The notes under the pieces are model-generated. The model searched no databases. It saw only the letters and a program-made list of their open reading frames with translations, and was not told the DNA's origin. The translations under genes were made by a program, and so were the position numbers. 64,000 nucleotides of DNA from positions 32,001-96,000 of the forward strand of contig DXJO01000020.1 in NCBI GenBank assembly GCA_019057475.1, given 5' to 3'. This DNA is from Candidatus Thorarchaeota archaeon (GTDB lineage Archaea > Asgardarchaeota > Thorarchaeia > Thorarchaeales > Thorarchaeaceae). This document shows, piece by piece, positions 1 through 34,992 of this stretch (position 1 is its first letter; every line of letters begins with the position of its first letter).

Positions 1-2
1 TA

Positions 3-7049: not shown

Positions 7050-7059
7050 CCAATTTTTC

Positions 7060-13062: not shown

Positions 13063-13066
13063 TGTT

Positions 13067-14371: not shown

Positions 14372-14456
14372 TTGGTCAACATTTATCTCTTTCACAAACT
14401 CTTTCAAGTTAGTGTAAGTAAGGTCAGTCACAGCAGTTTCTTGGGGCATCTTTGAG

Positions 14457-16280: not shown

Positions 16281-16325
16281 GGACCTTAAATCCTTCATTG
16301 ATGAGTAGACTACTGTGAGAAGCCA

Positions 16326-16574
16326 ATGTTCTTCGAATTGCTAAGCCCACTTGCTGATTTCGCGATTCTCATTGCAGGGTATTTTGGCGAGATATGGGAC
16401 TTTTTGATTTTTATTGGCCAAGTTTCGGCAAGCATTATTGTGCTCATCGGAGCGATACTATGGTTTACAGAAGCCAATATGAAGAGAGGTAAGGGATTAG
16501 TGTTTAGTGGCATACTTTTAGCAGTTGTAATTCAGTACTTCGTCATGTATCCTCCAGTGTTCAGCCTTGGTTAG
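16326..16574 (+). CDS. Small membrane protein
   Basis: Two to three hydrophobic helices, fills intergenic gap. Confidence 0.55.
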   Translation: MFFELLSPLADFAILIAGYFGEIWDFLIFIGQVSASIIVLIGAILWFTEANMKRGKGLVFSGILLAVVIQYFVMYPPVFSLG

Positions 16575-16594
16575 TGAAATGCATTTAATCCATA

Positions 16595-17812: not shown

Positions 17813-17868
17813 GGTTTGACATCGTTTGCTACACGTTTTTAACATCGTGTTATGGTTGGTCTTTCTGA

Positions 17869-18879
17869 TTGGTATTGAATCTCCAAGCTGTTGAGGGGTT
17901 TTTCCTTGTCACCGATGACGATCACATCTTTGAGGTGAAAGGTGTTGTTCATCCCAAGAATCGAGTAGTGGCATACCTGAGGTATTTGCCCGCCCAAGAT
18001 GGAAACCGTGTTTCTTCAAGTGGGGTTCGATATAGAAAAATTACTTCGTTGAAAGAACGTGAAGCCTATCTACAAGGAAAGCATAACGAATACCTCTGGT
18101 TTGATGAAACTCGTGGACGGCTCTTGCAAGCTGTGTCCTTGAATAGGATTGCATTTGTCCTTGACCCAGTTGATTGTCTGCGTCAGTTTAGAGATATGGG
18201 GCGACATTCAAGCTCATTGCAGCAGGCGTCTTTGGACTTGGTCCAAACATTGACTGACATAGCGGGGATTGAATGGGGAGCCATTGGGCTTACAGGGTCT
18301 CAACTGGTTGGACTTGCCTCGAGTGAATCTGACATTGACCTCGTAATTTATGGTGAAAAGCCGGCAAGAAAGGTGTACTCCATTCTGAAAGAACGGTTTC
18401 ATGCGATCGAGGATTTGGATTGGTATGCAGGCAAGCTACTGGATAAGCATGTAACATTCAGATGGGGTGAGAATCCTCGATGGCGTGATGTTTTGCGGAA
18501 GGTCGAATCAGACAAGGTGTTACAAGGAATCTTCGGCGGATACGAATTTTTCATTCGGATGGTCAAATCATCGGATGAGGTTGGATGTGAGTATGAGGAC
18601 TTTGAGATTCATAATGAAGGAATGCTAACAGTCAAGTGTCATGTGACTGATGATCATGATTCAATCTTCACTCCGTGTGCGTATGGGGTTCTATGCGATG
18701 GACTTGGCAATCTAAGGAAACTTGTGAGCTACCGAGGACGTTTCACAGAGCAAGTTTCAAAGGGAATGGATGTGGAAGCCAAAGGACGACTTGAATCCGT
18801 TACAGATAGACGGTCTGGAGAAGAGTTCAGCCAGTTAATGCTTGGAGAGAATTGGGATGATTACCTAATACCCCTTTGA
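17869..18879 (+). CDS. Predicted nucleotidyltransferase (COG1665-like)
   Basis: VKGVVHP..AYLRY, GLTGSQLVG..SDIDLVIYG. Confidence 0.75.
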   Translation: MVLNLQAVEGFFLVTDDDHIFEVKGVVHPKNRVVAYLRYLPAQDGNRVSSSGVRYRKITSLKEREAYLQGKHNEYLWFDETRGRLLQAVSLNRIAFVLDPVDCLRQFRDMGRHSSSLQQASLDLVQTLTDIAGIEWGAIGLTGSQLVGLASSESDIDLVIYGEKPARKVYSILKERFHAIEDLDWYAGKLLDKHVTFRWGENPRWRDVLRKVESDKVLQGIFGGYEFFIRMVKSSDEVGCEYEDFEIHNEGMLTVKCHVTDDHDSIFTPCAYGVLCDGLGNLRKLVSYRGRFTEQVSKGMDVEAKGRLESVTDRRSGEEFSQLMLGENWDDYLIPL

Positions 18880-18886
18880 TTATCAA

Positions 18887-19319
18887 ATTCACCACATTAA
18901 CACTAGTTCACACCATTCTGTTGTGAATGGCGCCATAATTGTGAATCGTCCAGAGAAATCGGGGGCTATAAGCCTCCATTGTATGCAAAAGGAGTTCATA
19001 ATGCCGGTCATCCTTGTGAATGGACACACCCCTCCGTTTCCACTGGAACTGAGCAAGAAGAATTCTTTATCCCTTGTAGGCTATTCACAAGCCACATATT
19101 CTAGTGAATGCTTGAAGATATGGAGGAATCGCCTATTTTTCCAATTAAGGGGCGGATAGGCCTTATTATATTCATTACGGAGTGTAGAGCATGTCACCAC
19201 AGGAGAATCGTGATGGGGGGGTCTTGAACGTATACAGACGCAATATCTTGCGCTTACCCAGGTATTGGCAATTCACATACTCACATTTATTTGCAGAATG
19301 TGTGTAATTCATTGTGAAT
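18887..19319. repeat. Cluster of TTGTGAAT motifs
   Basis: Exact at 18921, 18939, 19014, 19083 (rc), 19312; variants at 18887, 19102, 19271. Confidence 0.75.
19026..19049 (-). promoter_or_regulatory. Canonical ORB element (GTTCCAGTGGAAACGGAGGGGTGT)
   Basis: Matches archaeal ORB consensus with G-string; degenerate inverted copy at 18948-18965. Confidence 0.8.
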
Positions 19320-19359
19320 AGCAATAATATGGACCGCTTATTCGGAGAGTGATGAAATC

Positions 19360-19986
19360 ATGGCGGAAGGTGAAAGAACCAATTACGTTTACGAGTTCAC
19401 TTACAGCTCTGGACCTGGTTTACGCGAGATCTTTCAATGCAAATACGTCAGACCAGATGAAGCTCTCAACCGATTTCAGAAGATTCTTTCACTTACCCAA
19501 TCGCCCTTTGACTTCAAGATTCTGGTTTCTGACGAGTCGACTGGAGAAGAGTCAAGCTTCCAAGTAAAAGGGAACCCTGAAGAGATGGTTGGAAAGTTTA
19601 AGGTTTTCTTAGAAACCAGTACAGGCTGCACATTTGCCCCAACAGTTGAAGAGTTGGCAGATGTGGATTTCGAAGACATTAGCTATGAATCTATGAGCAA
19701 CTATGAGAAGATGCAGATGATAATCTATGCCTCGTTCAAACATGGAAAATTCTCATCATTGGATGTGGCAGAGATCTATGAATCTACGTTTGAGGAAGAC
19801 CTGCCGAAAAGCACTGCATCAACGTACCTTGCACGTATGTGGAACAACGGCGAGGCCCATCTGGAGAGACATGGCAACAGATCCGGTTATACATACCGTC
19901 TCAAGACAGAGCTGCCAGAAGTTCAAAGTGACATTGAAAGAGCAGAAGAGGTACTAGCAGCGATTCAGATACGAATTGGTAAGTAA
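19360..19986 (+). CDS. Hypothetical protein with C-terminal winged-helix domain
   Basis: FSSLDVAEIY..LPKSTASTYLARM..LERHGNRSGYTYRL wHTH pattern. Confidence 0.7.
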   Translation: MAEGERTNYVYEFTYSSGPGLREIFQCKYVRPDEALNRFQKILSLTQSPFDFKILVSDESTGEESSFQVKGNPEEMVGKFKVFLETSTGCTFAPTVEELADVDFEDISYESMSNYEKMQMIIYASFKHGKFSSLDVAEIYESTFEEDLPKSTASTYLARMWNNGEAHLERHGNRSGYTYRLKTELPEVQSDIERAEEVLAAIQIRIGK

Positions 19987-20081
19987 GTTGTTCCTTAGAG
20001 TAACTATACTGCATGGATTGCTCTATTCTTGAGGGGGTAAGCTTGTGTCCTTGTGAGTGACCCCGAGTTAGGGGTGCTGGC

Positions 20082-21398
20082 TTACAATGTTGTAATGCAA
20101 TCTTCAAGCTTGATTCCAAGGCTTTCAAGTTCGCTTAAAATCGGCTCATATATTTCAGACATGATTGGCCTGTGGACTCCAGTTAGGGTGATTCTACCTT
20201 CAAGGATCATTCTGCTTGCCACTGCTACAGGTAGTGCGACAGTTCTTGACATTGAGCTGTCCCCATTTGGAATACCATAATCAATCAGTGTTGATGTTAT
20301 CTTCTCTTTCTTGTCGCTGTACTCTGCTATGAATTCGTGATGCATGACTATCATGTCACGTTCTCCAGGAGCATACTGCAGCTTCTCTTCAAAGAGATGG
20401 CACAATACATCAAGGTGTGTCGTGATATTTGAAGGAATCTCTGTATCATTGAAGAGGCCAAGCCATTCCAAACGGGAAATGATTGGGTCACTCTTCTTGA
20501 GACCGGCCGCTTTTGCAACTGCATCTTGTAAGTTGCCATTCTCAGAATCTGTTAGTTTACGCATCATATCTGCGTATGTCATATTCTCAAAGGACTGTTC
20601 ATCAAGTTCTAATAGGCCCAAGTCTGCAATTTTCTTTAGTGTGTTGCACCATCCTGGGTTTCTGAAAGTTCCACGCAGCATTGTTTTTGTTTCTGATATA
20701 TTGTAGATGTCAATGTAGGATATGCTGTCCCTGTTGGGATATCCTTCAAACTTCCCCATTCCTGGAACTTCCATGATCTCATAATTATCAAAGAGCTCAG
20801 GACCCGGAATCACAACATCCTTGCCGTCGCGTAGGAAGTGAGCATCGTTCCTGCCCGCAAGAAGAACGCCTCTTGGACTCCAAGAGAGTTTGTATCCAAA
20901 TGGATTGTTATTGGCATCAGGAGCAGGAAGTCCTCCAGTGAAAGATGTGAAACTTATGACCTTGCCGCCTTTGTTGTGAATGTCATTGATTATCTTCATG
21001 GCGCTCATGTGATCGATTCCAGGATCAACTCCACACTCGTTCAGTACCAAGATTCCTGCTTTTTTTGCTTTATCATCCAGGGCTTGCATTTCATCGGATA
21101 TGTATGAAGTTGTGCAGAATGGCTTGCAATATTTGATTGCTAGCTTTGCAGCTTTCACATGGTAGGTGTAAGGTAGCAGCGAACAAGTCAAATCAGCTTC
21201 GGCAACTAGCTTGTCAAGTAGTTCATCATCAGTCTTGATATTCAGGGTGATAGCTTCTGCGCTCTTACATCCTTTAATCAATCGCTCGGCCTTGCTTTTT
21301 GTCCGACTGGCTACTATAACATGAAATCCATGATTGCACATGTATTGAATGTACGGGCGGGCTACGAGACCCGCACCAAGACAGAGTACTTTCTGCAT
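20082..21398 (-). CDS. Saccharopine dehydrogenase (glutamate-forming, Lys9/SDH-like)
   Basis: LGAGLVA, ECGVDPGIDHM, GGLPAP..YKLSWSP, YPNRDS, MSRTV. Confidence 0.92.
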   Translation of the reverse strand: MQKVLCLGAGLVARPYIQYMCNHGFHVIVASRTKSKAERLIKGCKSAEAITLNIKTDDELLDKLVAEADLTCSLLPYTYHVKAAKLAIKYCKPFCTTSYISDEMQALDDKAKKAGILVLNECGVDPGIDHMSAMKIINDIHNKGGKVISFTSFTGGLPAPDANNNPFGYKLSWSPRGVLLAGRNDAHFLRDGKDVVIPGPELFDNYEIMEVPGMGKFEGYPNRDSISYIDIYNISETKTMLRGTFRNPGWCNTLKKIADLGLLELDEQSFENMTYADMMRKLTDSENGNLQDAVAKAAGLKKSDPIISRLEWLGLFNDTEIPSNITTHLDVLCHLFEEKLQYAPGERDMIVMHHEFIAEYSDKKEKITSTLIDYGIPNGDSSMSRTVALPVAVASRMILEGRITLTGVHRPIMSEIYEPILSELESLGIKLEDCITTL

Positions 21399-21415
21399 TT
21401 TTAATTCTCCTTGGT

Positions 21416-22714
21416 TTATAGGTATTGTTTGAGATAGTCGTAATTCTTAGTCAGCTCTCCGTTGTATACAATTGTTGCATCCTTGAGTTCTCTGGGGAGC
21501 TTGAGCTGACCAAAAGGAACTGTGAAATCTGCCTTTGCTAGAGCAGGTATGAAATCTAGCAGAGTTTCGCTGAATGAAGTAGATGATTCGCGTGGAAGCT
21601 CTGTGGGGAGATTGTCTACTGCCATGACAACTGGTCCATTGCCTTCCACACCTAAAACCGCACGGTCTTCGTCCACAAGGTAGGTGAATGCGGGCTCACC
21701 AGCATCAGTACATTGAAGAGTAAATTCCATTGCGCCGTTGACATCACATGAGATATCTCCGACAATTCGTAGGCGGCGATTAGGATCACTCCAGTGCTTT
21801 CGGATAAAGTCCTTTGTCACAAGACGTGGGGACTTCTTCGTCCAGTAGATGCAGTTCATTAGTACCGTTAGATGAGGAATGTAAGATTCGAATTTGCCCT
21901 TGTATTTCGTAGCACCATGCTCGTAGTAGTCCATGAGTTCGAATTCTGCTGAAGAGTCTAGCGGCTCCACCATATGCTCTTCCTTGAAGACACATTTGTA
22001 GAGCAGGTTCCGCTTTGCTGTAACATTTGCCAAGCCTTTGGGTTCTATTGTTTCATGCGGGAGCATGTCAAATATCTCCTGTGCACCTCGTGATACATTC
22101 CCATATCCTGCGAATCCGACGATGAAAGGTGTCAAGGAGTCAGGCAGACCCTGTTCTTTGATGCGTTTGCCCAGTGTTTGGATTCCTTTCTTGAGTTCAT
22201 CAAGATCCTTGTATTGTGCGGTATGTTTCATACCAAAGAATGGATTCGGTTTAATACCCTCAACCTCGAGCCGTAGGCCCAGAATACGAAATGTTTCGGA
22301 CATACCTGCAAGGCCGGCCCAGTTGCCAAAGAAGATCAATCTGAACCCTTTCTCATTCACAATGCGTTCGTAGTCAATGAGAGTTGCGCCTACGTTCATG
22401 ATTTGCTTCAACATTGGCATGTTGTACTTCTGGCCCTTGATTGTATGGCTGAAGAAGATGTACACCTTTCCTTTTTCGTAGAAGTCGTTGGGCATCTCTT
22501 TCACTCCCAGAATCACAGGGATTTCTGTTCCCTTCAGGGGTTTGATCTGTGCGCCAACTTTTTCGAATTCGTCTGGTCCAAAAGCTCGTTGATTACTCGG
22601 TTCAACAACGAACTGAATCCCATGTTTGGTGCTCAAGAGCTTGATATGCTCAGGAACAACAGGGACTCTAGTTTCGAACATCTTCTCTTCTTTTCTCAGG
22701 CCAATGATGTTCAC
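21416..22714 (-). CDS. Lysine-2-oxoglutarate reductase (LKR domain of AASS)
   Basis: GVKE, FFSHTIKGQKYNM, IDYE, GYGNVSRGA, DISCD, VDNLPTELP; GTG start after GGAGG. Confidence 0.88.
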   Translation of the reverse strand: MNIIGLRKEEKMFETRVPVVPEHIKLLSTKHGIQFVVEPSNQRAFGPDEFEKVGAQIKPLKGTEIPVILGVKEMPNDFYEKGKVYIFFSHTIKGQKYNMPMLKQIMNVGATLIDYERIVNEKGFRLIFFGNWAGLAGMSETFRILGLRLEVEGIKPNPFFGMKHTAQYKDLDELKKGIQTLGKRIKEQGLPDSLTPFIVGFAGYGNVSRGAQEIFDMLPHETIEPKGLANVTAKRNLLYKCVFKEEHMVEPLDSSAEFELMDYYEHGATKYKGKFESYIPHLTVLMNCIYWTKKSPRLVTKDFIRKHWSDPNRRLRIVGDISCDVNGAMEFTLQCTDAGEPAFTYLVDEDRAVLGVEGNGPVVMAVDNLPTELPRESSTSFSETLLDFIPALAKADFTVPFGQLKLPRELKDATIVYNGELTKNYDYLKQYL

Positions 22715-22844
22715 GACATTTCCTCCTTGAAAGATGGGAATGCGACCCAAGGACTGGGGCGGCTGTTGAGCAAGGCATTTCCGCTTTAAGCCTTCCCTCT
22801 TGTACCTGTAATACTTGGACTAATGAATCAGAACATGTGTTCTA

Positions 22845-23150
22845 ATGTTGGCTGAGAAAATGTCAAACTTTGTCTATCTCTATGACTGCCGAAATGCGCG
22901 TCAGAGGAATGCCAGAAGAGTTTCTTTCACCAAGGAGCTTTACGGATTCTTGTATTCCTGGAAAACAAAGACAGGGGTCAAACAAAGGCGAAAACCAGGG
23001 TTACTTGACGAGTGTGTAGGTGCAGAAGCTGTTGCTGATTCTGCAATCTTTGTACCGGGGGAATATCGAGGTGAATTTGATTCTCTCTTTCAATCATATC
23101 AAGACATTCTGACAATCCGAATCTTCGAAATACTTGAAGAAGTGATATAG
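22845..23150 (+). CDS. Small hypothetical protein, possible Cas2/VapD-like ferredoxin fold
   Basis: FVYLYD..RRVSFTKELYG..GLL..DSAIFVP pattern; fold is inference. Confidence 0.55.
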   Translation: MLAEKMSNFVYLYDCRNARQRNARRVSFTKELYGFLYSWKTKTGVKQRRKPGLLDECVGAEAVADSAIFVPGEYRGEFDSLFQSYQDILTIRIFEILEEVI

Positions 23151-23175
23151 GATTGCTTTGAATTTCGTATCTATC

Positions 23176-23484
23176 GTATTACAATAATTAGAACATGTGT
23201 TCCAAGTTGCATTTCAAGTTCGTTTGGATCAGTGCAACTCTCTAACCCCTCCATTTCCAGTGGAAAATAAGAGGAGTGTCGATAAGAATAGATGTAGAAA
23301 AGTATTTATAGCTGTTTCAGAACCCGATGATCATCTCCATTTTATTATATTATATATATAACCACCCAGCGTATCTCACATTTTATTCTCCAGTGGAAAT
23401 GAAGGGGTGTTATGTCATATTAGCCGAATACATGGATAGCTATTTGTGTAATACGTGATCCAAATGCTTGGAACACGTGTTCCA
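23176..23484. other. Candidate replication origin (oriC)
   Basis: Inverted ORBs at 23245-23265 (-) and 23389-23410 (+) around an all-A/T tract at 23339-23361. Confidence 0.8.
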
Positions 23485-23624
23485 TAAAATTCACCGACTG
23501 TATTTCCATATTTGCGATTTTGTTTGGTGTTTTGGGCCCATAAAGATCAATACCGCAAGACTGATACCAACGATTCTTTCTTCGCCCGACAGCATTCATG
23601 CGAATGCGAGAAGGAGGCAAATCA

Positions 23625-25517
23625 GTGACCAAACCGAAACAGCTCCTAGAAGACAACGTCGGCAAAGAAATGCTCTTGCTTGCCAACGAATCGATAGCGC
23701 GTGGAGTGCTTGAGGCGGGAGTACGTCTGGTAGCTTTGTACCCTGGTACTCCAAGCAGCGAGATAGGAAATAATCTCACTTTCATGGCACCACACATCCC
23801 CGATTTCTATTTCGAATTCAGCACCAACGAAAAGGTTGCAATGGAAGTCGCTGGAGCTGCTGCCGTAGCTGGCGTTCGATCCATGATGGTATGTAAAGGA
23901 CCCGGTCTCAATGTAGCTGCCGATCCGTTCTTCTCACTAGCTTATGTTGGAGTTCGAGGTGGGATGGTCATAGTTGTTGCTGACGATCCAAGCATGTGGA
24001 GCTCCCAAAACGAGAACGATTCTCGCTACTATGCACTCATGGGTAATATGCCTCTAATAGAACCGTCCGATCCCTCTGAAGCGAAGTCAATGTTGCTCCA
24101 AGCCTACGAAATCTCAGAAAAGCTCGAACTACCTATTCTCTTTCGTACAACCACCCGAATCAATCATACTAGATCACCAATCACATTCGGCCCGATTCGA
24201 GATAGACCAAAAAAAGTCGAATTTGTCAAAGAGCCATTCAGATTCGTGCCAATACCTTCAGTAGCTCGAATTCGCCATTCTTGGCTTTTGAAACAGATTG
24301 AACTTGCAATGGAAATCTCAGAATCAACGAAGCTTAACTTCACAACCGGCAGCGGAAATCTGGGAATATTAACTAGCGGAGTTTCATACAATTACGTGGT
24401 TGAGGCTCTATCGGCTTTGGATATCAATGCCGAAACTTTGAAGCTTGGAATGACACATCCTGTTCCTGAGAAGATGATATCAGAGTTTCTTAAGCGTCAT
24501 AAACAAGTGGTGATAGTCGAGGAACTCGATCCATTCTTGGAAACACATGCTAGAAGGATTGCACAGCTCAATGGAATCAAAACAAACATTCTCGGCAAAG
24601 AACAGGGTTTCTTCCCTCGAACGCTCGAATACAGTCCGCGAATTGTGATTGAAGCCCTCTCGAAGATTCTGAATCGTAATACGAGTATTAACTGGAAGAC
24701 AATCGATCAGAAAGCTGGCGAAATCTCCGAATTGCCTCCACGGCCTCCGCTTCTTTGTGCTGGATGTCCTCACAGGGCTACGTACTATGCAATTCGAGTA
24801 GCTACGCGCGGAAAAGCAATCTACCCATCGGACATCGGATGCTATACGCTTAGCATTGCACCACCATTAGAAACTGCTGACATTCTATTTGACATGGGTT
24901 CTTCAATTACAACAGCCTGTGGTCTTGCTGAAGTCACAGACCAGGACGTTGTTGCTACAATAGGTGACAGTACTTTCTTCGCAGCTGGATTGCCTGGGAT
25001 TGCCAATGCTGTCTATAATCAGCATAGAATTAGCTTAGTCGTACTTGACAACCACACAACTGCAATGACCGGACACCAGCCTCATCCTGGAACTGGTGTC
25101 ACAGGAATGCAGGAAAAGGTACCACCACTCAACATTGCAAAGGTCTGCAAGGGACTTGGAGTAGAATATGTGAAGACAATCGATCCATTCGCCTCCTTAG
25201 CAGATCTTGTTGCTGCAGTTCGGGAGATGACCACGTGGACAAGAGAAAATCACAAACCAGCAGTACTAGTTTCAATTGCTCCTTGTGCACTCCTTGAAGC
25301 TGCTGAGCGCCGTAAGACAGGCGAGTTCCCCCCACCTTACTACGTCGATTCCGAACTCTGTAACTCATGCAAGCGCTGTTTGAATCGCTTGTCATGTCCA
25401 GCTATGTATCTCGATACGGAAACCGGACAGGCAGTGATTGACCAGACTATGTGTAATTATTGCGGAACATGCGTTGCCGTATGTCCACAAGGCGCAATCA
25501 AACAGGAGGATGCCTAA
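23625..25517 (+). CDS. iorA: Indolepyruvate:ferredoxin oxidoreductase alpha subunit
   Basis: YPGTPSSEI, STNEKVA, RPPLLCAGCPHR, DIGCY, GDSTFF, C-terminal 2x[4Fe-4S]. Confidence 0.93.
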   Translation: MTKPKQLLEDNVGKEMLLLANESIARGVLEAGVRLVALYPGTPSSEIGNNLTFMAPHIPDFYFEFSTNEKVAMEVAGAAAVAGVRSMMVCKGPGLNVAADPFFSLAYVGVRGGMVIVVADDPSMWSSQNENDSRYYALMGNMPLIEPSDPSEAKSMLLQAYEISEKLELPILFRTTTRINHTRSPITFGPIRDRPKKVEFVKEPFRFVPIPSVARIRHSWLLKQIELAMEISESTKLNFTTGSGNLGILTSGVSYNYVVEALSALDINAETLKLGMTHPVPEKMISEFLKRHKQVVIVEELDPFLETHARRIAQLNGIKTNILGKEQGFFPRTLEYSPRIVIEALSKILNRNTSINWKTIDQKAGEISELPPRPPLLCAGCPHRATYYAIRVATRGKAIYPSDIGCYTLSIAPPLETADILFDMGSSITTACGLAEVTDQDVVATIGDSTFFAAGLPGIANAVYNQHRISLVVLDNHTTAMTGHQPHPGTGVTGMQEKVPPLNIAKVCKGLGVEYVKTIDPFASLADLVAAVREMTTWTRENHKPAVLVSIAPCALLEAAERRKTGEFPPPYYVDSELCNSCKRCLNRLSCPAMYLDTETGQAVIDQTMCNYCGTCVAVCPQGAIKQEDA

Positions 25518-25518
25518 A

Positions 25519-26127
25519 ATGAAGAGTGATACAGTAAGCATTGTTATCTCAGGGGTCGGTGGCCAAGGTGTCCTTACATTAGCAGAGATATTAGCAAAAG
25601 CTGCTCTGTCTGATTCGCACAATGTCCGCGTGGGTGAGATACACGGAATGGCCCAAAGAGGAGGTCATGTGGTATGCACTGTTCGCATTGGTGCTGGCGC
25701 ACGAGGTCCAATAGTAGACCCGGGGACAGCTAATCTTCTTGTTGGTTTTGAACCAGTTGAAACACTACGCGAGGCTCACATGATTCGAGAAGATGGATGC
25801 GTTTTGCTGAGCTCACACATACAATATCCTGTAGCGGTTTCCATGGGCAAAGCAGCATACCCTAACAACAAAGAAATCATTAGCGGCATTCGCAAATTCT
25901 CTGATCGCATCCTTGAATTCGACGCAATGGCAATGGCAAAGAAAGCAGGGAGTTCAAGAGTACTCAACATGATAATGCTTGGTGCTATCATTGGAACAGG
26001 ATTGACTCCGATAACCGAAGAAGCAGCAATAGATGCAGTTCGTAGCACTTTCTCAAAGAAGTTTGAGTCGATCAATATCAAAGCAGTCAAGATGGGTCGC
26101 AAAAAGGTCGAGGAGCTTAATCGTTAG
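25519..26127 (+). CDS. iorB: Indolepyruvate:ferredoxin oxidoreductase beta subunit
   Basis: GVGGQG, EIHGMAQRGG. Confidence 0.92.
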   Translation: MKSDTVSIVISGVGGQGVLTLAEILAKAALSDSHNVRVGEIHGMAQRGGHVVCTVRIGAGARGPIVDPGTANLLVGFEPVETLREAHMIREDGCVLLSSHIQYPVAVSMGKAAYPNNKEIISGIRKFSDRILEFDAMAMAKKAGSSRVLNMIMLGAIIGTGLTPITEEAAIDAVRSTFSKKFESINIKAVKMGRKKVEELNR

Positions 26128-26130
26128 CAT

Positions 26131-28503
26131 TTATCTTGCAAGCTTTGCAGCTGCAACTACGGCTTGACCTGATGAAATTCCCCCGTCACCAGGTGGAATG
26201 TGCCTATGGATCAATGGGGTGAGACGCTCATTGGTGATACGGTTGATGATTGCCTTGGTTATAATTCGATTCAATGCAACACCTCCAGAGAACCCTACAT
26301 AGTCTAGCCCCTCACTGTGTGCTGCATCACAAGCCATCTTGGCAAATGATTCACCTAGGTACCATTGAGCTGCATAGGCGAGTTCAACAGACTTAGCTCC
26401 ATCTTTCTTGAGCTCGAGTAGCTGCATTAATGACTCGGCGATATCCAAGAATGTACCACGATTGTTTGTATTGAATCTGGGTTCAAGTCGTATCTTCGTT
26501 TTATGAGCAACCGATTCAAGTCTCATGGGGCATTCACCATCATAGGTATTCTCCGAGCAAATCCCCAGTGCTATTGCCACTGCATCAAGATATCGTCCGG
26601 CACTGCTGCTTTGAATAACATTCACCTTTCGTTTGGTCGCTTCAATGAGCAATGACAGTGACTTTTCCGTAGTACTTATGCCGGGGGCAATCAAGCTTCC
26701 TTCAACAATATCCAACATCTCACATAAGCTCAGTTCCTTTCGAAGCAGTCCAACGAACGGTCTCACTGCATGCTTTGCAGAGAGATCTCCGCCGGCATAC
26801 GCAGTCTGTTCCAACCCCCCGATTCTTGCATACTCTTCGAAGCTTCCTACAAGGATTTCACCACCCCACGCACTACCATCATTTCCATAGCCAAATCCAT
26901 CTGCTGTAATACAAGTGATACGCGTATTGGATGACAGTTGATGGTCAACCATGAGGGATGCTAAGTGAGCATGATGATGCTGTACCCTAAAGAGTGGAAT
27001 GCCCTTATCCGATGATAGCGCTTCTGCGAACTCAGTAGTCAGGAATTCAGGATGGAGGTCACAAGCGACAGCATCGATCTTATCGACAGCCAATAGACGA
27101 ACCATGTGATTCAAGGCGTCAGACAGGAACTCGATGTTCTCAAGTCGGTCTGTGTCACCGATGTGCTGGGTGACGTAAATACGTCTAGACTTCAACACTG
27201 CACCAGTCGTCTTTTCTTCTGGACCTACTGCAACTATTGTTGACGAACCATAGGGTCCTTCCAGCCTCATCGGATCAGGTACGTAACCCCTTGCTCGTCG
27301 TAAGAAGACAGCATGATCACTACTGACGGGCTTGATGACCGAATCATCTGCTCTTTGGTATATCCTCCTATTGTGAATAAGAAAATAATCTGCAACACCC
27401 TCTAGCTTAGACATAATGTTGTCAGGATGAATGTACATTGGAAGTCCCGTAGGATTCGCACTTGTCATGACTAGTGCTGGCTCCTCTGAGAAATGAAACA
27501 ATAGATGATGAAGAGGAGAGTACGGGAGCATCACTCCCACAGTATCAAGACCTGGTGATATCAGCTCCAAAGAGTCGTCAGGTATCGCACCTCCCCCCTC
27601 AGACTCCTGGTTCCTGTCATCAATCCGGTCTCGCTTCTTCACAAGTACAATTGGCCTTCTCCATGAAGTGAGTAGTTCCTCCTCCATTGGCGTTGGTCTT
27701 GAGAATGCTCTAATAGCATCGAGGTTTCTTGCCATGATGGCAAAGGGCCGGTACGCTCTCTGTTTCCGAGTTCTAAGGTTTCGTATAGGAATAGCGTCGG
27801 TCACTTTCGTGACCAAATGAGTTCCCCCTATTCCTTGAACTGCAATGATAGATCCCTGTGACAACAGATCTGCAGCACCAGCAATCGAATCGGCATCCAC
27901 AGCTGGTCGATTATGTGCATCTACGAGTCGATAGATCGGCCCACAATCTTCACAAGCAGTAGTTTGAGCATGATACCGGCGGTCAAGAGGGTTTGTATAA
28001 CCTGTATTACAAGTATCACATAGGGGAAAATCAACCATTGTAGTATTGGGTCTATCATAGGGAAGATCAGTAATTGTTGAGAACCTTGGACCGCAAGCAG
28101 CACAGGAAGTAAAAGGATACAGATACCACCTTGAATTGGGATTGGTCATGTCAGTGATGCAGGCCGAGCAGATTGCAATATCGGGGGGTATGTCGGGGGT
28201 CAATTCAGCATTCCTGAATGTAGAGGACTTTTTGATGATGAAATCCTTGAAGGATTTCCTTAATTCTTCCCATTCGATGTCAAGCTTGTCCACCCGTGAT
28301 ATGGATGGAGGATCCTGCTCAATCTTATGTATCAGTTCCTTAATACTCTTTAAATTGCCCTCAACAACAATGCGGACACCGGCATCGCCAAGATTCAAGA
28401 CATATCCTTCTAGGGAGAGGGACTTTGCAACACGATACACAAACGGCCGAAAGCCTACTCCCTGCACGATTCCAGTGACATGGATGCTGGCTCTGCGTTT
28501 CAT
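26131..28503 (-). CDS. hypF: Carbamoyltransferase HypF
   Basis: GIVQGVGFRPF, Zn fingers, RRYHAQ, QHHHAH, PPGDGGIS. Confidence 0.96.
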   Translation of the reverse strand: MKRRASIHVTGIVQGVGFRPFVYRVAKSLSLEGYVLNLGDAGVRIVVEGNLKSIKELIHKIEQDPPSISRVDKLDIEWEELRKSFKDFIIKKSSTFRNAELTPDIPPDIAICSACITDMTNPNSRWYLYPFTSCAACGPRFSTITDLPYDRPNTTMVDFPLCDTCNTGYTNPLDRRYHAQTTACEDCGPIYRLVDAHNRPAVDADSIAGAADLLSQGSIIAVQGIGGTHLVTKVTDAIPIRNLRTRKQRAYRPFAIMARNLDAIRAFSRPTPMEEELLTSWRRPIVLVKKRDRIDDRNQESEGGGAIPDDSLELISPGLDTVGVMLPYSPLHHLLFHFSEEPALVMTSANPTGLPMYIHPDNIMSKLEGVADYFLIHNRRIYQRADDSVIKPVSSDHAVFLRRARGYVPDPMRLEGPYGSSTIVAVGPEEKTTGAVLKSRRIYVTQHIGDTDRLENIEFLSDALNHMVRLLAVDKIDAVACDLHPEFLTTEFAEALSSDKGIPLFRVQHHHAHLASLMVDHQLSSNTRITCITADGFGYGNDGSAWGGEILVGSFEEYARIGGLEQTAYAGGDLSAKHAVRPFVGLLRKELSLCEMLDIVEGSLIAPGISTTEKSLSLLIEATKRKVNVIQSSSAGRYLDAVAIALGICSENTYDGECPMRLESVAHKTKIRLEPRFNTNNRGTFLDIAESLMQLLELKKDGAKSVELAYAAQWYLGESFAKMACDAAHSEGLDYVGFSGGVALNRIITKAIINRITNERLTPLIHRHIPPGDGGISSGQAVVAAAKLAR

Positions 28504-28618
28504 CTAGTAACGGCCTCTCAAAAGCCTTGCTTAGTCATGATATTAATCCAGTGAAGCAACGACAAATTACATGTGACCTTGTAGGACCTCTTAAGGAAAT
28601 GCCAGAACACATGTATGA

Positions 28619-29065
28619 TTGACCTTGCATATTTTCAGTAAGAACACCGAGTCCATCGTTCATGAACCGATAACTACGCCTTCCATTCTTGCCACTGTGC
28701 CGGAGTGCTTAAGGAACACTCTGAAAAAGTCCATCAGCAAGACACAGAAGCGGAGGAAGTCGGTTTTAATCTCAAGTAACAGTCTTGCAAATCGATTCAT
28801 TCTTTCCAGGTGGGGAATCCACCCCTCACAACGCAGACACTATCGAAATCTATTCGCAGCAGTAAGGAAGCACTGTAGAGCTGTCTTCAGGCACACTCTT
28901 GCCCAAGGCCGCTTGGAATGGGAATCTGCATCCGAAAGATATGTGTTTGGAGTTTACAAGTTCGACGAGATACGAGGAAATTTAATACTTGGTTTTGTGA
29001 TAGTATCTCCGAACTCAGAATGGTTTCTTAAGCCGAGATCATCCACTTGGCGCCCTAAAACCTAG
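28619..29065 (+). CDS. Basic hypothetical protein
   Basis: 148 aa K/R-rich ORF divergent from hypF. Confidence 0.55.
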   Translation: MTLHIFSKNTESIVHEPITTPSILATVPECLRNTLKKSISKTQKRRKSVLISSNSLANRFILSRWGIHPSQRRHYRNLFAAVRKHCRAVFRHTLAQGRLEWESASERYVFGVYKFDEIRGNLILGFVIVSPNSEWFLKPRSSTWRPKT

Positions 29066-29521
29066 TGGGTTGCAAACAGCTGCTTTTAAGTTGGACATAC
29101 CCGGACAATTCCATTGTGGGCCTTATATAGACCAATACGACATTGATCTGAGGAATATGACACACCTGTAAAGGTTTCTCACGGAGTAGTCCAGTGCCGT
29201 TTTCTGGACGTACTAGACTTCGGTGTCCAACTTTGTACAACTTACAATGAACGGTAGTATTACAGATATTACTCAATGGTAAGCAGTTCGCGAAAGACAT
29301 ATCTCAAGCTTACTGTATGAAACACTGGTATACGATACTGTATCCGCTAAGAGGCTCCTATCATTCACATGAAGAACAACCATCATAGACCTCTACAACC
29401 GAAATTGGGCTATATGAGGTACGTTCCCTGTGGCTATGATGGGCCCCAATCAGCAATTTCATGCAGAATAACGGAGTGTAGAGTCTTGGAATCGAATAGG
29501 AAGGAGCAAGGGTTTCGGGGA

Positions 29522-30046
29522 ATGCCGAAAAGGAGAATCCGATCTAATGTTAAGCAGGTTTTGAACGAACCAATACTGAAGACCCTAGTCAAGCAGTCAA
29601 TACTCACTGAAACACAACTTGAAACATTAATCATTGATCTTCTCGTGGAGGATAACTACGGAGCTCACATTCCCTATGATGACAAAGCAGCATTCAGGTT
29701 TCGTCGGGGTACTAGAGCACGAGGAGTATCGCGTGGAGCATTCAACAGATCACTGAGCCAGGCACGGAGGAACCTGACGCGGTGTCTAAGTACAATGCTT
29801 CTGCTAGCCTATCTCGGACTGTTTGAATTCACTATATTTCGGCCTTTTGAAGAGATAGCTGGAAGGATTGGAAACTACAGGCACATCCGCGACATACTGG
29901 GCGACAAGGTTCAGTTGACAACTGAAGACGTCGAGAGCTACCGTGCGGCTGAACGTATGATTCTTGCAGCCCTTGATGAGCTTACCTCGTCCGTTGCGTT
30001 GAAATCCGATCTCTCTAAGAGAAGGTCTAGTCCCACAACTGATTAG
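29522..30046 (+). CDS. Helix-turn-helix protein (Tfx/sigma-region-4-like)
   Basis: LTETQLE..GVSRGAFNRSLSQARRN HTH pattern. Confidence 0.7.
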   Translation: MPKRRIRSNVKQVLNEPILKTLVKQSILTETQLETLIIDLLVEDNYGAHIPYDDKAAFRFRRGTRARGVSRGAFNRSLSQARRNLTRCLSTMLLLAYLGLFEFTIFRPFEEIAGRIGNYRHIRDILGDKVQLTTEDVESYRAAERMILAALDELTSSVALKSDLSKRRSSPTTD

Positions 30047-30447
30047 CTTTGAATAGATGTACTAGACCGGTGATTGCGGGCGAGCAAAAAACGGTACGAA
30101 TGTGTCGTGTCATCGAAGACGCAATGCAACGCCAGCTAAGTTCGTTTTCCCATCGGGTCGTTCATAGCCACATTGATCATCTTGGAAGTATATCTTGAGG
30201 AGATAGAGATGCCAACGATATTGCCTGAACTTACCAAGGCAATCCGAAACTTCGGCATTGGCATGTCATCTTTGACACGACACACTCATACAGAACATGA
30301 ACACAATGATACATAGTTCTAATCTTAGAACAGGAATTTCGCTCAAGATACATGTGCAAATAGCCTATTTGTAATACGTGACATACAGATAATACAATCA
30401 TCTTTTATCTAGCCAACCTTTATCCTACTTGGACGAATCAGTGAATC

Positions 30448-31725
30448 TTGATTCAGGCAGTGACAGTGATAACGGTGGTCAAGGAAAATCCCTTGGACAG
30501 GCTATTGAAAGAAAGTAGAAAACGAGTTGCGGAAATTAAGGATCGCGATAAGCTTGATGAGATTGCGAATGCAATTGGCGACCGAAGAGAACGGGACCTA
30601 CTTGATCTCCTAGCCAACATCGAAGCCAGAAATGGATGGGGAACCGTAGTTCAGTTTCTAATCGAGTCGGCAAAATCTACTTACTCGGCTCCAATTGGCG
30701 CAGGGGGAAACCAAAGAAGAATCGAGCCTTTGAAGTATCGAGAAGTGATTTTCGCCACCTTCTCCTCCGCAGGCCTGGAGCCTGTGAATCATGATACAGT
30801 AGCGTTGCTCAATGAACTACGAGGTGAAGAGTCGATGGTATCCGCTACACGTACATTCGCTGCCAGAGTTCAGAATCTGGCAATTGAGCAATTCCAGAGT
30901 GGAGATGCCCTTTTCTTCGATTTGACGAGTATGAGCAGCTCTCTTCCAACAGACTTGATCAAAATGGCTGAAGCGATTCACAAGAAACGAATGCACGAGC
31001 TAATCATTCCGGTTAGCAAGAAACAAGCACACGTGAAACAGCTGTGGTACTCCGAGTATGGCCGGACAGCCTTGGCAGAACAAGGAGCTAAAGGAAACAG
31101 ATTACTACTCTCCGATCTCGACTCGGTATTATCTGTAATACAATTAAGAATTGGCCGTCGGCCTATGACCAAGGAAAATGACAGTCCCCTGGAAGTATCA
31201 GAGGCTTCACCCGCTAATATTGACTATGGAAACCTTCTCACCATGATAATCAACCAAGACATCAATGGACTTGGCCTTCTTGGAAGCAAATACTCACATC
31301 CTCTTCTCAATACTGTACTAGAATCAACGGTTGTTGATTACCAGCAAGACAAGTCCAACAATCTGTTTAGGAGGTTTATCTCTTGCATAAACAGCCATGT
31401 GCAAGTTCGATCACTAAATTCACTCGCAACGTTCGAGCGAATTATGCAACTAGATAACAGCCGCCTTGCGACACCGGTCACCATTGCTCTTGGGAATTTC
31501 TATCATGAATCCGCGGCTTCAGTTTTAATTGAGCTAGCATGTAGGACAAGGAATAAGGACGTCGAAACTGCTTCGCTCACATCCATCGCAAACATTCGCC
31601 GAAAGTGTCCTGAGGTTGAAGTCGTATTAGACACAGTCCTAGCATCAGAGTGTAGAAATCGCGGCAGACTAAGACGCTTGCAGAAGAAGCTTTTGAAGAC
31701 CGGTAGAAGCCAGTATTACAGCTAA
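30448..31725 (+). CDS. Helical hypothetical protein with C-terminal HEAT-like repeats
   Basis: IALGNF..AASVLIELA..ASLTSIANI. Confidence 0.65.
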   Translation: MIQAVTVITVVKENPLDRLLKESRKRVAEIKDRDKLDEIANAIGDRRERDLLDLLANIEARNGWGTVVQFLIESAKSTYSAPIGAGGNQRRIEPLKYREVIFATFSSAGLEPVNHDTVALLNELRGEESMVSATRTFAARVQNLAIEQFQSGDALFFDLTSMSSSLPTDLIKMAEAIHKKRMHELIIPVSKKQAHVKQLWYSEYGRTALAEQGAKGNRLLLSDLDSVLSVIQLRIGRRPMTKENDSPLEVSEASPANIDYGNLLTMIINQDINGLGLLGSKYSHPLLNTVLESTVVDYQQDKSNNLFRRFISCINSHVQVRSLNSLATFERIMQLDNSRLATPVTIALGNFYHESAASVLIELACRTRNKDVETASLTSIANIRRKCPEVEVVLDTVLASECRNRGRLRRLQKKLLKTGRSQYYS

Positions 31726-31787
31726 TATAAGTATTACGCCCTGCGAGCACGACAGACATAAATCAACTGGCCTTCTCGCGTGAGAAC

Positions 31788-33182
31788 ATGAGCAAATCAA
31801 AAGGGAACGCAATGGAGGAAATTGGCAAGTTCTTCACACCTCATTCCGTTGCCTTAGTTGGAGCTTCATCTGACTACAGGAAGTTAGGTAACTCAATACT
31901 GATGAATCTCCTGGCTTCAGAAATACAGGTATATCCCGTTACCCGAAGTAGAAACCGTGTCCTCGGTGTCAAGGCGTATCCGGATTTGAGAAGCCTACCC
32001 GAGCCCGTTGATCTAGTCATCATTGCGGTAGCTGCCAAATACTGTGCGGAACTTATGTCAGAAGTACAAGGTGCCGGGGCTAGACATGCAGTGGTGATTT
32101 CCGGTGGATTCAGTGAAACTGGTCCTGAAGGAGAGAAGCTCGAAGACGCGCTAGCCGCAGCTGCGAAAAAAGCGGATGTTAGAATCATCGGTCCGAACTG
32201 CGTTGGAGTATCCAACAGTCGAATCTTCAATGGCACATTTACTATGATGCCAGAGCGCGGCAACATAGCATTCCTATCTCAGAGTGGTGCGCTTGGAGGC
32301 ATGACGATCTATATGACGCGAGCGAAACGCATAGGCATAAGCAAGTTCGCTAGCGTTGGAAATGCGTCAGATGTGAGTTTCGATGAAATAATCGACTACT
32401 TCAGAATAGACACAAAGTCTGCAGTCATTGCGGTATACGTAGAAGGAGTCGATAATGGCAGATTATTCTTCAATGCTCTATGTAACGCTGCCAACGAAAA
32501 GCCAGTTGTTGTTCTGAAAGGTGGTCGGAGTGATGTAGGTGGAAAGGCCACACGGTCACACACCGGATCTATGGCTGGATCTCCGAAGCTGTTTGAAGGA
32601 ATGATTCGCCAAGCTGGCTGTGTCACAGCCCCAACATTCGATTCATTGCTTGAGATATGCAAGCTATTTGATTATCAACCTCTTCCTGCGGGAAATCGTA
32701 TTGGTATTATCAGTAATACAGGTGGAGCGGGAGTTCTGGCCACGGATGCAGTATCTGAATTCAATCTAGAAGTTCCTAATCTGGAAAGAAAAACACGTCA
32801 TGAACTCAAACAGATTCTATCTCCCATGGCGTCGATAGACAATCCAGTGGACGTAGTGGCTGGTGCTGGCCGAAAAGAGTACAGTATTACAACAGAGCTT
32901 TTGCTAAGAGATCCAAACATAGACATGCTGTTGGTAATCTGTGGTGTACCGACATTTGCAGGAATGACACAGACTGAACATGCAGCAGGCACTCTCGAAG
33001 GACTACGAACTGCCGAGAGCGGAAAGCCTGTTGTCGGAGTCTGGTTGGCGGGTGACGTTGGCAAGCCTGGTAAGGACTTGCTAGAAATGAACAGAATACC
33101 ATGTTATGACGACCCTGCGCTAGCAGCTCTCTGCATGTCACGAATGGCACAATACGCTGAGATGCATAGCTCTTCCAAGTAG
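31788..33182 (+). CDS. acdA: ADP-forming acyl-CoA synthetase alpha subunit
   Basis: VALVGAS, IGPNCVG, SQSGA, SHTGSMAG, NPVDV. Confidence 0.9.
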   Translation: MSKSKGNAMEEIGKFFTPHSVALVGASSDYRKLGNSILMNLLASEIQVYPVTRSRNRVLGVKAYPDLRSLPEPVDLVIIAVAAKYCAELMSEVQGAGARHAVVISGGFSETGPEGEKLEDALAAAAKKADVRIIGPNCVGVSNSRIFNGTFTMMPERGNIAFLSQSGALGGMTIYMTRAKRIGISKFASVGNASDVSFDEIIDYFRIDTKSAVIAVYVEGVDNGRLFFNALCNAANEKPVVVLKGGRSDVGGKATRSHTGSMAGSPKLFEGMIRQAGCVTAPTFDSLLEICKLFDYQPLPAGNRIGIISNTGGAGVLATDAVSEFNLEVPNLERKTRHELKQILSPMASIDNPVDVVAGAGRKEYSITTELLLRDPNIDMLLVICGVPTFAGMTQTEHAAGTLEGLRTAESGKPVVGVWLAGDVGKPGKDLLEMNRIPCYDDPALAALCMSRMAQYAEMHSSSK

Positions 33183-33230
33183 GTCGTTCTACTGAAATAT
33201 CATGTATTACATGTATTAGAGCCGATACCA

Positions 33231-33539
33231 TTATGATTTCAGATGTCTTTCTGCAATGGTCGGAAACTCATTTGTCACCGCTTCGCGCAGCCTACGCTCA
33301 ACCCACATACTCAGGTTGATCGACTTTTCACTTCTCACAGCCTGCAAACAACTTCTCAAGTCTATTGGAATGGAGAACGAAACAATGGGGCTCTTACGCT
33401 CACGGTTTGGCACAGCCTCAACATGCCCAGCTTCATCTACTCTCTTTACAGAGGTGTGTGTGGGTTGACTTATCGCTGCTGCAGATTCACCCTTCTTTCG
33501 TCTATCTTCTTCATCTCGTCTATACTTACCTAAAACCAT
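33231..33539 (-). CDS. Ribbon-helix-helix DNA-binding protein with disordered N-terminus
   Basis: IVSFSIPIDLR..INLSMWVERRLREA; GGAGGTG RBS; start codon directly follows the ATPase stop. Confidence 0.7.
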   Translation of the reverse strand: MVLGKYRRDEEDRRKKGESAAAISQPTHTSVKRVDEAGHVEAVPNRERKSPIVSFSIPIDLRSCLQAVRSEKSINLSMWVERRLREAVTNEFPTIAERHLKS

Positions 33540-33541
33540 TA

Positions 33542-34516
33542 TTACACCTCCTTCAAGATACTGGCATAAGCTTCTGTCACCAGCTCGGCAATCTTTAGGG
33601 TAACAGCTGGATTTCCTGATTGTCTGAGCTTTTCTGCTGCCACCTGTTGGCACCCGCGGGCAAGCATCCGTATATCGCGTGGATTCCCTCTGGCTGCACG
33701 GTTGATAGTTTCTATTGTTCTCTCATCAAATGGATATAGGTCGAAATTAGTGGGATCAAATGTATCGATTTTCCCTTTCGCATACGCCAATCTACGGCCA
33801 ACGAATTCCTTCGCCTTTTGATCATCAAGTGGCGGTACATCAAGTGGTTCAGTTCTGTGTGCAATCTGCGGCAAGAAGTTGAGCATGGCATTCCAATACT
33901 CCGTTGTTCCGCTCATGATAAGCGTGATAATGGGCTCATCAAGTGCACTTCCGCCACGTGAATCAACCATCTCCTCAGTAGGCAAATCTGCCAAGTATCG
34001 CAGTTTGTGGAAAGCTGCCTCTTGGTTGTCAGCAACATCTTCTATGAATAAGGCTGTGCGACACTTGTCCTGGACGTACCTTCTTAGGCTCTCTTTGGCA
34101 ACGGCCTCGACAATCTGACTTGACTCCCATGACCGACGATACTTAATCCTAAGAGAATCAGCTATTGCTGCTGACATTTGTTTTTCATAGAGACCGGTCA
34201 TTCCGACATAGCCCGTGACAAACTTGTTTCCGCGTCTGTCCGCCAAGGTGGGCAAGTCTCGAAGAGCCAAGAGCATCAAAGTACTCTTGCCAGATCCCAC
34301 TGGACCCCTCAGGAACACATGACGCTCATTCGTAAGAATCAAATCAACGATACTGTCAAGGAACGTTGGGTGTTCAATGTATAACCTTGAATCCGGCATC
34401 TTGTAGCCCCGGAATGGTGAGGACCTGCAGCTAACAGCCTCTTCCCACGCACGCAGAACTTCCTTTCTAGTGTTGAAGTGCCTAATCAAAGCGCTTTCAT
34501 GGATGGCAATTGTCAT
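33542..34516 (-). CDS. ExeA/GspA-like AAA+ ATPase (AAA_22)
   Basis: GPVGSGKST, LFIED Walker B variant, IMSG sensor 1, GNPRDI sensor 2. Confidence 0.8.
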   Translation of the reverse strand: MTIAIHESALIRHFNTRKEVLRAWEEAVSCRSSPFRGYKMPDSRLYIEHPTFLDSIVDLILTNERHVFLRGPVGSGKSTLMLLALRDLPTLADRRGNKFVTGYVGMTGLYEKQMSAAIADSLRIKYRRSWESSQIVEAVAKESLRRYVQDKCRTALFIEDVADNQEAAFHKLRYLADLPTEEMVDSRGGSALDEPIITLIMSGTTEYWNAMLNFLPQIAHRTEPLDVPPLDDQKAKEFVGRRLAYAKGKIDTFDPTNFDLYPFDERTIETINRAARGNPRDIRMLARGCQQVAAEKLRQSGNPAVTLKIAELVTEAYASILKEV

Positions 34517-34713
34517 CTTGTTTGCCCTCTTGTATCACAAGTACTTCGTGTAATACAGTTTCTGCCATTTATTATTCTGATATAAATAGTATGGTCGATT
34601 ACCGGGGCTATACCAAACCCATCACAATGAACGATAACCTTTTTCAAGCAGACCAAATTGAGAAGCGCAGCCGGAAAGTTGACCCGAACTGGTGTAACAG
34701 GGAGTCAAGTGAA

Positions 34714-34992
34714 ATGGACATCAATCGAACTCAACACATACTAAACTCATTGATGATTCTCGCTTTCTTGATATTCGGAGGTCTTTCAGGTTTGCTGCTC
34801 ATCACAGATACACCTCTCACGAGTTCAACAGTTGCACTCCCATTCGCTTTCCTCTTCCTGTGCATCATGACTCTCATAGTCACTGGACAGATTGACGAGA
34901 AGCCTCAGATGATTGAGAAGTATCTACGCGAATGGCTTGTAATTTGTATCTTCGGTGTTATAGTGGCCGCCTTAGCCTTTACACTTGCCTGA
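34714..34992 (+). CDS. Small 3-TM membrane protein
   Basis: Three hydrophobic helices. Confidence 0.6.
   Translation: MDINRTQHILNSLMILAFLIFGGLSGLLLITDTPLTSSTVALPFAFLFLCIMTLIVTGQIDEKPQMIEKYLREWLVICIFGVIVAALAFTLA

Follow-up and report, generated by a model that had tools for sequence, protein, structure and literature searches.

What are a dozen copies of a short palindromic motif doing between a putative replication origin and a two-gene operon on the chromosome of a Thorarchaeota archaeon? The question arises in a 64-kb window (C54:32001–96000, the whole stretch of DNA analysed here) of contig DXJO01000020.1 from the Candidatus Thorarchaeota assembly GCA_019057475.1, which comprises 3.34 Mb in 56 contigs and is 96% complete. 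The operon encodes an AAA+ ATPase and a 102-aa protein resembling ribbon–helix–helix (RHH) DNA-binding proteins, and the repeated motif, TGTAATAC, occupies the interval from origin to operon. An earlier note on this DNA had read these parts as a partition-like module built on an AAA+ ATPase. Almost all homologues of the proteins encoded in the window carry Thorarchaeota names. As predicted from their sequences, the origin-side repeats and the ATPase/RHH operon look like a device, not described before, by which the origin region would be segregated, organised or timed. The ties of the array to the operon and to the origin are well supported; contact between the RHH protein and the ATPase, the identity of the protein that binds the motif and the cellular function are what we infer. 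We found no description of such an AAA+/RHH origin-array system in the searched literature.

The counts and positions on which the earlier note had relied were reproduced: 12 copies of TGTAATAC lie at 22807–34556 (11.8 kb) and a lone copy at 45584, making 13 in the window. The copies flank an inverted pair of origin recognition box (ORB) elements and an A/T run, occur within hypF, a 425-aa gene and acs, and bracket the operon (34549 upstream, 33204 downstream), which consists, as that note had described, of an AAA+ gene and a gene for a tailed RHH protein, 2 nt apart on the minus strand. Dinucleotide-preserving shuffles of the window gave a mean of 1.0 copies and a maximum of 4. Rather than being uniformly common, the motif is rare in the genome, with 54 copies in all, or 0.016 per kb; the array, at 1.0 per kb, is about 60-fold denser. 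In an unbiased k-mer screen of the 12-kb region against the remaining genome, TGTAATAC was the top 8-mer (12 copies versus 0.15 expected; Poisson p = 3e-19) and GTAATAC the top 7-mer. The genome holds no second cluster, bar one pair on the same contig; this pair lies outside the window at C54:116931 and C54:117012, 81 bp apart on opposite strands. The copy at 45584 is probably incidental and outside the array, since a conserved E-Y-Y-N peptide, with synonymous variation in relatives, explains it. We do not claim that the motif is depleted outside arrays: the reversed word used as a control has a different TA content, and shuffles predict approximately the observed number. Outside the array there are 42 copies, of which 14 are intergenic and nine lie at most 150 nt upstream of an open reading frame (ORF). 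Single copies stand 43–62 nt upstream of the genes for topoisomerase VI (Topo VI) subunit B (C21:165994), a Mg-chelatase/MCM-like AAA protein (C18:82895) and a PadR regulator (C29:2017), and these genes may form a small regulon sharing the box.

Within the array, the sites have a regular internal structure. A logo built from 130 copies pooled from this genome and ten relatives reads T-GTA-W-TAC-A, flanked by weaker copies of the unit exactly 9 bp to either side. A second unit (match of at least 6/7) was found at +9 or −9 in 13–26% of cases and at +18 or −18 in 2–6%, other offsets accounting for at most about 2%. This 9-bp preference identifies the unit as the palindrome TGTAWTACA, two or three of which follow one another head to tail in each block. 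When every 27-bp window of the genome was scored for three units (out of 27), seven windows reached at least 21/27, and 7/7 lie inside the array, which represents 0.36% of the genome.

Of the 10 genera of the family that were sampled, 9 have the array at the same place, with motif density confined to the origin-to-operon interval. G024, for example, carries 17 copies over 25 kb, G014 has 18 within 10.5 kb and G013 about 19, against roughly one per 50–100 kb elsewhere in these genomes. A k-mer clustering analysis detected no significant array in G025, G026 and G037; G025 keeps just a promoter copy. Site positions common to genera include hypF codons ~167 and ~530, iorA codon 360, approximately codon 225 of the 425-aa gene, and five intergenic spacers. 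In hypF, the three-unit block TGT GAT ACT / TGT AAT ACA / GGT TAT ACA is kept down to the third codon position. Among 231 hypF columns with an invariant residue, 14 use the identical codon in seven genera, and 7 of these 14 lie in or beside the two sites. Where the block is present, the canonical C-x-x-C-x-x-E-Y of the first HypF zinc finger becomes C-N-T-G-Y, with loss of the Glu, and G009 and G025, which are without the block, retain E-Y. At 27994–28020, the DNA motif thus looks to override a conserved protein motif, and selection on the array as DNA is well supported.

The operon itself occurs once per genome, shows about 80% identity between genera and is present in 44 of 48 family genomes, with a GGAGG site preceding the second gene. 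A three-unit site lies between the TATA-like box and the ATPase ATG in nine genera, in the predicted position of a repressing operator. The ATPase has a classical Walker A motif, a Walker B with E-D instead of D-E, and a G-N-P-R sensor 2; it carries no DNA-binding domain and ends after the lid domain. All its matches in Pfam and NCBIfam are below threshold: AAA_22 (21.8 bits against a gathering score of 27), NB-ARC, AAA_16, ORC-CDC6-like (PF24389), an ExeA-like TIGRFAM, and TIGR02928 (12 bits against a cut-off of 181). The family is small, with 23 representatives among 1.84 billion proteins. The best fold matches of its predicted model are ORC/Cdc6 chains; these matches are weak because the shallow alignment gave an AlphaFold model of low confidence (predicted local distance difference test, pLDDT, 61).

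The C-terminal domain of the 102-aa protein is highly conserved, with a strand–helix–helix pattern, and is modelled as two helices after an extended strand. In both fold searches, the model matched almost exclusively RHH proteins (Arc, omega, SegB, ParD, CopG-like ORF56, pCXC100 ParB and MatP), with Z ≤ 3.8 and Foldseek E > 4. Sequence searches against solved structures returned P-loop matches alone for the ATPase and none for the RHH protein. Prediction of a complex between the two proteins gave 'no answer' (score 0.00), which carries no weight either way. PADLOC, PHROGs and NCBIfam offered nothing useful for the uncharacterised genes of the locus, which argues against a defence or phage cassette. 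A toxin–antitoxin or transposon (TniB/TnsC-like) reading was rejected given that the pair is single-copy, conserved and positionally fixed.

The putative origin belongs to the ORB type, with inverted ORB elements and their G-strings arranged around an A/T-rich element, a 22-nt run at 23340–23361. In plus orientation, the ORB 11-mer occurs in the genome solely at this locus. Here orc1/cdc6 lies ~24 kb away. Well beyond the family, in other Asgard families, the operon is linked to the origin or to orc1/cdc6: it adjoins orc1/cdc6 and an ORB-type origin in six of them, and in five orc1/cdc6 is adjacent to the homologous gene set. In families f3, f7, f19 and f21, the homologous genes stand together within 5–10 kb, the pair being a few kb from orc1/cdc6, an ORB-like element and orf101. 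Their succession starts with orc1/cdc6 and the winged-helix gene, passes through the ORB-like intergenic region to orf101, and continues with the AAA+, RHH-like and UPF0251-like helix–turn–helix (HTH) genes and often hypF. The winged-helix gene and orf101 flank the ORB-like spacer beside orc1/cdc6 in f3, f7 and f19; of these two genes, only the winged-helix one was found in the stretch examined in f21 (G073). In the Thorarchaeota window, two dehydrogenase genes (20082–22750) separate the winged-helix gene from orf101, so that an ancestral origin region appears to have been broken up. The contig's GC skew was not informative on the origin. In the window it is steady at approximately +0.1 over positions 1–20000 and near zero beyond.

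Across Asgard families, the motif and the RHH-like protein vary together. In family f26, the same GTAWTAC 9-bp iterons surround the operon (12 of 15 copies in 4.5 kb), and copies at the operon promoter also occur in families f2, f21 and f26. Families f7 and f19 encode another RHH-like type; their ATPase promoter and the surroundings of the operon contain GATATC palindromes in tandem, and TGATATCA is clustered at this place instead. On the closed 3.58-Mb chromosome of G061, 10 of 61 TGATATCA copies fall in a 14.7-kb stretch that takes in cdc6, the origin and the AAA+/RHH genes. Since the motif changes together with the operon-encoded RHH type, we favour the operon RHH protein as its likely binder on this comparison of sequences.

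Distantly homologous cassettes are found on small haloarchaeal plasmids. A search with the f3-type AAA+ homologue led to AAA+ genes on archaeal plasmids (E = 1e-13, 97% coverage); tblastn searches of plasmids and phages with the Thorarchaeota AAA+ protein and the f7-type homologue gave no match. In two cases, pNG100 (33 kb) and a Natrinema plasmid of 30 kb, the ATPase gene is followed by one for a 101–106-aa protein with an acidic tail, and AT-rich TCTTAAGA-type iterons lie upstream of, between and downstream of the two genes. In pNG100 (NC_006389.1, ~17482–18818), three TTAAT-CTTAAGA-CTAAGA-type repeats bracket and separate the AAA+ and small genes, a layout shared by the Natrinema plasmid. 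An orc1/cdc6 gene follows the pNG100 cassette by 0.9 kb, and no ParA is annotated on this plasmid. A Thorarchaeota-only profile scores the plasmid ATPases at 23–25 bits, versus at most 5 for true Orc1/Cdc6 proteins.

Table 1. Coordinates of the array, the putative origin and the associated genes in the window.
Feature	Position	Strand	Remarks
Winged-helix-like gene	19360..19986	+	homologues between orc1/cdc6 and orf101 in other Asgard families
Whole array	22807..34557	.	12 exact TGTAATAC plus weaker GTAWTAC units, origin to AAA+/RHH promoter
Motif copy left of origin	22807..22814	+	16 nt ahead of palindrome at 22831
Three GAACAYGTGTTC palindromes	22831..23482 (22831-22842, 23191-23202, 23471-23482)	.	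frame orf101 and ORB pair
orf101, conserved small origin-adjacent gene	22845..23150	+	beside orc1/cdc6 in other Asgard families
Motif copy between orf101 and ORB1	23176..23183	-	
Putative origin core	23256..23399	.	inverted TCCAGTGGAAA ORB pair at 23256 and 23389, G-strings outward, around A/T run
Motif copy right of ORB2	23447..23454	+	16 nt ahead of palindrome at 23471
Weaker three-unit site, 20/27, in iorA near codon 360	24675..24701	.	exact copy here in relatives
Three-unit site, 21/27, in hypF near codon 532	26905..26931	.	TGT ATT ACA kept synonymously across genera
Genome's best site, 23/27, hypF codons 162-170	27994..28020	.	embedded in zinc-finger CxxC motif
Intergenic copy upstream of UPF0251-like gene	29257..29264	-	
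UPF0251-like predicted HTH protein	29522..30046	+	neighbours AAA+/RHH pair across Asgard families
Three-unit intergenic site, 22/27, upstream of 425-aa gene	30370..30396	.	
Site, 19/27, within 425-aa gene	31125..31151	.	position kept in relatives
Three-unit site, 21/27, between 425-aa gene and acs	31712..31738	.	
Copy within acs (ADP-forming acetyl-CoA synthetase)	32884..32891	-	
Site, 21/27 (two-unit score 17/18), just downstream of RHH gene	33194..33220	.	
102-aa RHH-like protein	33231..33539	-	invariant N-terminal LLGKYR, variable charged linker, conserved C-terminal domain
AAA+ ATPase, 324 aa, ORC/ExeA-like	33542..34516	-	Walker A GPVGSGKST, Walker B IED, sensor-2 GNPRD
Three-unit operator-position site, 22/27	34531..34557	.	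between TATA-like box (~34583-34590) and AAA+ start codon; conserved in 9 genera

Several neighbouring features of the locus are listed in Table 1. GAACAYGTGTTC is a 12-bp palindrome, 3 of whose just 10 genome copies sit at the origin, and its clusters mark the same place in all family genomes. Elsewhere, family f19 has one copy upstream of orf101, and family f7 has GTTAAC-based palindromes instead. Candidates for binding GAACAYGTGTTC are the orf101 protein and the winged-helix protein. Divergent from the AAA+ promoter, a gene at 34510–34992 encodes a small protein whose C-terminal part has hydrophobic segments; the gene is conserved in synteny and shares the operator region. Homologues of the UPF0251-like gene are named UPF0251-family DNA-binding proteins by the Joint Genome Institute (JGI), and feature-based look-alikes of it occur in Bathyarchaeota and, with lower scores, in Hadarchaeota.

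We propose the following mechanism. Dimers of the 102-aa RHH protein would bind the 9-bp palindromic TGTAWTACA units, with neighbouring dimers cooperating on contiguous units, to yield a dozen or more strong nucleoprotein sites over 12–25 kb on one side of the origin. One of these sites overlaps the predicted transcription start of the RHH protein's own operon, where binding would repress it. The N-terminal LLGKYR, carried on a flexible linker, would contact the co-encoded ORC/ExeA-like AAA+ ATPase, which could act as a nucleotide switch or a motor on the RHH–DNA complex. Together, the two proteins may mark origin-proximal DNA in a centromere-like manner, so as to position it, segregate it or fold it into an origin domain, and the same cassette logic may serve some archaeal plasmids.

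The arrangement resembles type Ib partition systems (ParF–ParG of TP228, delta–omega of pSM19035) and SegA–SegB: a gene for a nucleoside triphosphatase (NTPase) comes first and one for a small tailed protein, here of predicted RHH type, second, repeated sites lie at and around the operon, including its promoter, and the locus lies near the origin. SegB, too, has numerous sites on the chromosome, in part within genes (PMC12284271). Unlike these systems, however, the NTPase here is an ORC/ExeA-like AAA+ protein and not a deviant-Walker ParA, and the sites form a one-sided 12–25 kb array of 9-bp palindromes. Met box units are 8-bp palindromes and omega heptads 7 bp long; they are set head to tail, each taking one RHH dimer, and neighbouring dimers cooperate. 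The array shares with the MetJ/met-box and omega/heptad operators this use of tandem short units, here of 9 bp, although those are single promoter sites and this is a chromosomal array. Bacterial site arrays near the origin or the terminus (parS clusters, RacA/ram and MatP/matS) offer a further parallel, in that tens of sites, many intragenic, lie in one chromosomal region and mark it for segregation or folding. MatP also has an RHH domain and is among the Foldseek matches of the 102-aa protein; the proteins and motifs are nevertheless unrelated, and the host here is archaeal. With respect to the ATPase, the P-loop AAA+ core and the sensor-2 G-x-P-R are shared with Orc1/Cdc6 and other AAA+ proteins of the initiator clade (ExeA/AAA_22 and TniB/MuB-like). 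Unlike Orc1/Cdc6, the protein is without a winged-helix domain and scores far below the family cut-offs; unlike ExeA/GspA, it falls below the AAA_22 gathering score and has no C-terminal peptidoglycan-binding domain, a C-terminal extension being present solely in the distant homologue P0259.

For the partition-like module of the earlier note, the NTPase, the tailed RHH protein and the repeats, including those at the operon's own promoter, stand, and are strengthened by co-variation and the plasmid homologues; what that note overlooked is that the core of the motif has been described before. The aCcr1-box (ccr-2 box) of Sulfolobales is a 9-bp palindromic A(T/G)G(A)TA(G)A(T/G)TACN, also given as AGTATTA and TGTATTAT (PMC9976878, PMC9976892), and comparison of our logo and of an operator alignment with these reports shows that the array core, GTAATAC/GTATTA, equals the published one. 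Because the core is that of the aCcr1 box and other small RHH proteins are encoded, explanations based on the cell cycle and on replication control come into view. A trans-acting aCcr1/CdrS-type RHH protein could bind the array, which would act as a high-affinity sink that doubles at initiation and couples replication to the free regulator, the operon being one conserved target. This would fit with the at least four small aCcr1/CdrS-like RHH proteins of the genome, one of them encoded directly upstream of ftsZ in an operon-like arrangement, with the third of outside copies that are intergenic, and with the nine close upstream of an ORF, the one near Topo VI B among them. It would also fit with G030, which has a GTAWTAC pair upstream of its AAA+ gene though its own RHH protein is of the other type. 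At C18:113490–114964, the gene for a 61-aa CdrS/aCcr1-like RHH protein overlaps the start of the FtsZ-like gene, as in the haloarchaeal cdrS–ftsZ2 locus. No GTAWTAC was found within 1 kb of this cdrS–ftsZ locus, however, and multi-unit sites are confined to the array, many of its sites are intragenic, the motif switches to TGATATCA exactly where the operon RHH type switches, and the plasmid cassettes have iterons of their own. We consider this explanation unlikely. The operon RHH protein itself shows some likeness to aCcr1 of Sulfolobales and CdrS of haloarchaea: the motif core is shared, an RHH binder is expected, and its recognition strand has ...VSF..., like the viral aCcr1 homologues from Acidianus two-tailed virus, ATV. 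Over a longer stretch, its ...PIVSFS...DLR...NLS... is in the same register as ...RVVSFK...DLL...NRSE... of the ATV homologues. Alignment of its profile with ATV ORF59b was in register at a negligible 2.6 bits, and sequence homology between the operon RHH protein and aCcr1 is not demonstrable. In contrast to aCcr1, a 58-aa stand-alone factor with sites in scattered promoters, the protein here has 102 aa with a 50-aa N-terminal extension, is coupled to an ATPase, and has multi-unit, partly intragenic sites in one origin-side field.

Alternatively, the RHH protein could bring an ORC-like AAA+ protein to DNA to regulate origin firing or helicase loading, through licensing, sequestration or initiator titration, instead of segregation. 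The weak but repeated ORC/Cdc6 likeness (PF24389 and TIGR02928 traces, and ORC/Cdc6 chains at the top of the fold search), the persistence of the pair beside orc1/cdc6 and ORB elements in seven families and beside the pNG100 rep gene, and the motif copies directly flanking the ORB pair are consistent with such a role. Yet the array reaches 12–25 kb from the origin into unrelated genes, the Thorarchaeota-only profile hardly recognises Orc1/Cdc6, the ATPase has no winged-helix domain and the model used in the fold search is of low confidence; replication control is, in our estimate, rather improbable. A more ordinary origin of the repeats, as operators of neighbouring promoters or as a by-product of composition or coding, was already disfavoured and appears very improbable. 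Intergenic positions close to promoters account for approximately half of the copies, and coding constraint explains the copy at 45584, but the k-mer enrichment, the synonymous retention of intragenic copies at the cost of a canonical protein motif, and the parallel arrays of another motif in other families all speak against it.

Other points weigh against a centromere-like role for the operon. The core of the motif is the box of a trans-acting RHH regulator (PMC9976878, PMC9976892), and the binder could be any of the at least four small aCcr1/CdrS-like RHH proteins encoded in the genome, or else the UPF0251-like HTH protein. The structural model of the ATPase is poor, as its pLDDT indicates, and the modelled RHH fold is statistically indecisive at the scores obtained for so small a domain. 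Origin activity is a prediction from the ORB elements, and orc1/cdc6 is distant in this genome. Because the whole 40 kb around the array is syntenic across the family, linkage within the family is weak evidence and says little by itself. Many Asgard families do not have the AAA+ family at all (two of them, for example, have it in 0 of 24 and 0 of 12 genomes), so this is not a universal Asgard machine. Overall, a centromere-like or origin-organising role is the best-fitting mechanism, and we judge the chances about even that the operon RHH and AAA+ proteins handle the origin-side array in this way.

More tentatively, and in our view somewhat doubtful, the locus may exemplify a further class of DNA segregation machine, in which an ORC/ExeA-like AAA+ protein, and not a ParA, actin or tubulin homologue, is combined with a tailed RHH protein on palindromic iteron arrays. 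Such a class would be found at the origin on several Asgard chromosomes and beside orc1/cdc6 on some haloarchaeal plasmids, with a specificity borrowed from or shared with the aCcr1 box. Reviews note just ParA/ParB homologues (PMC7617429). This locus supplies testable parts tied to the origin across several Asgard families, namely a defined array of sites and two proteins that are candidates for its adaptor and its motor, and the homologous cassette on small haloarchaeal plasmids could replace it where genetic tractability is needed. Should the ATPase drive or gate segregation, DNA partition would gain a new motor class, and an archaeal cell-cycle box would be tied to chromosome mechanics.

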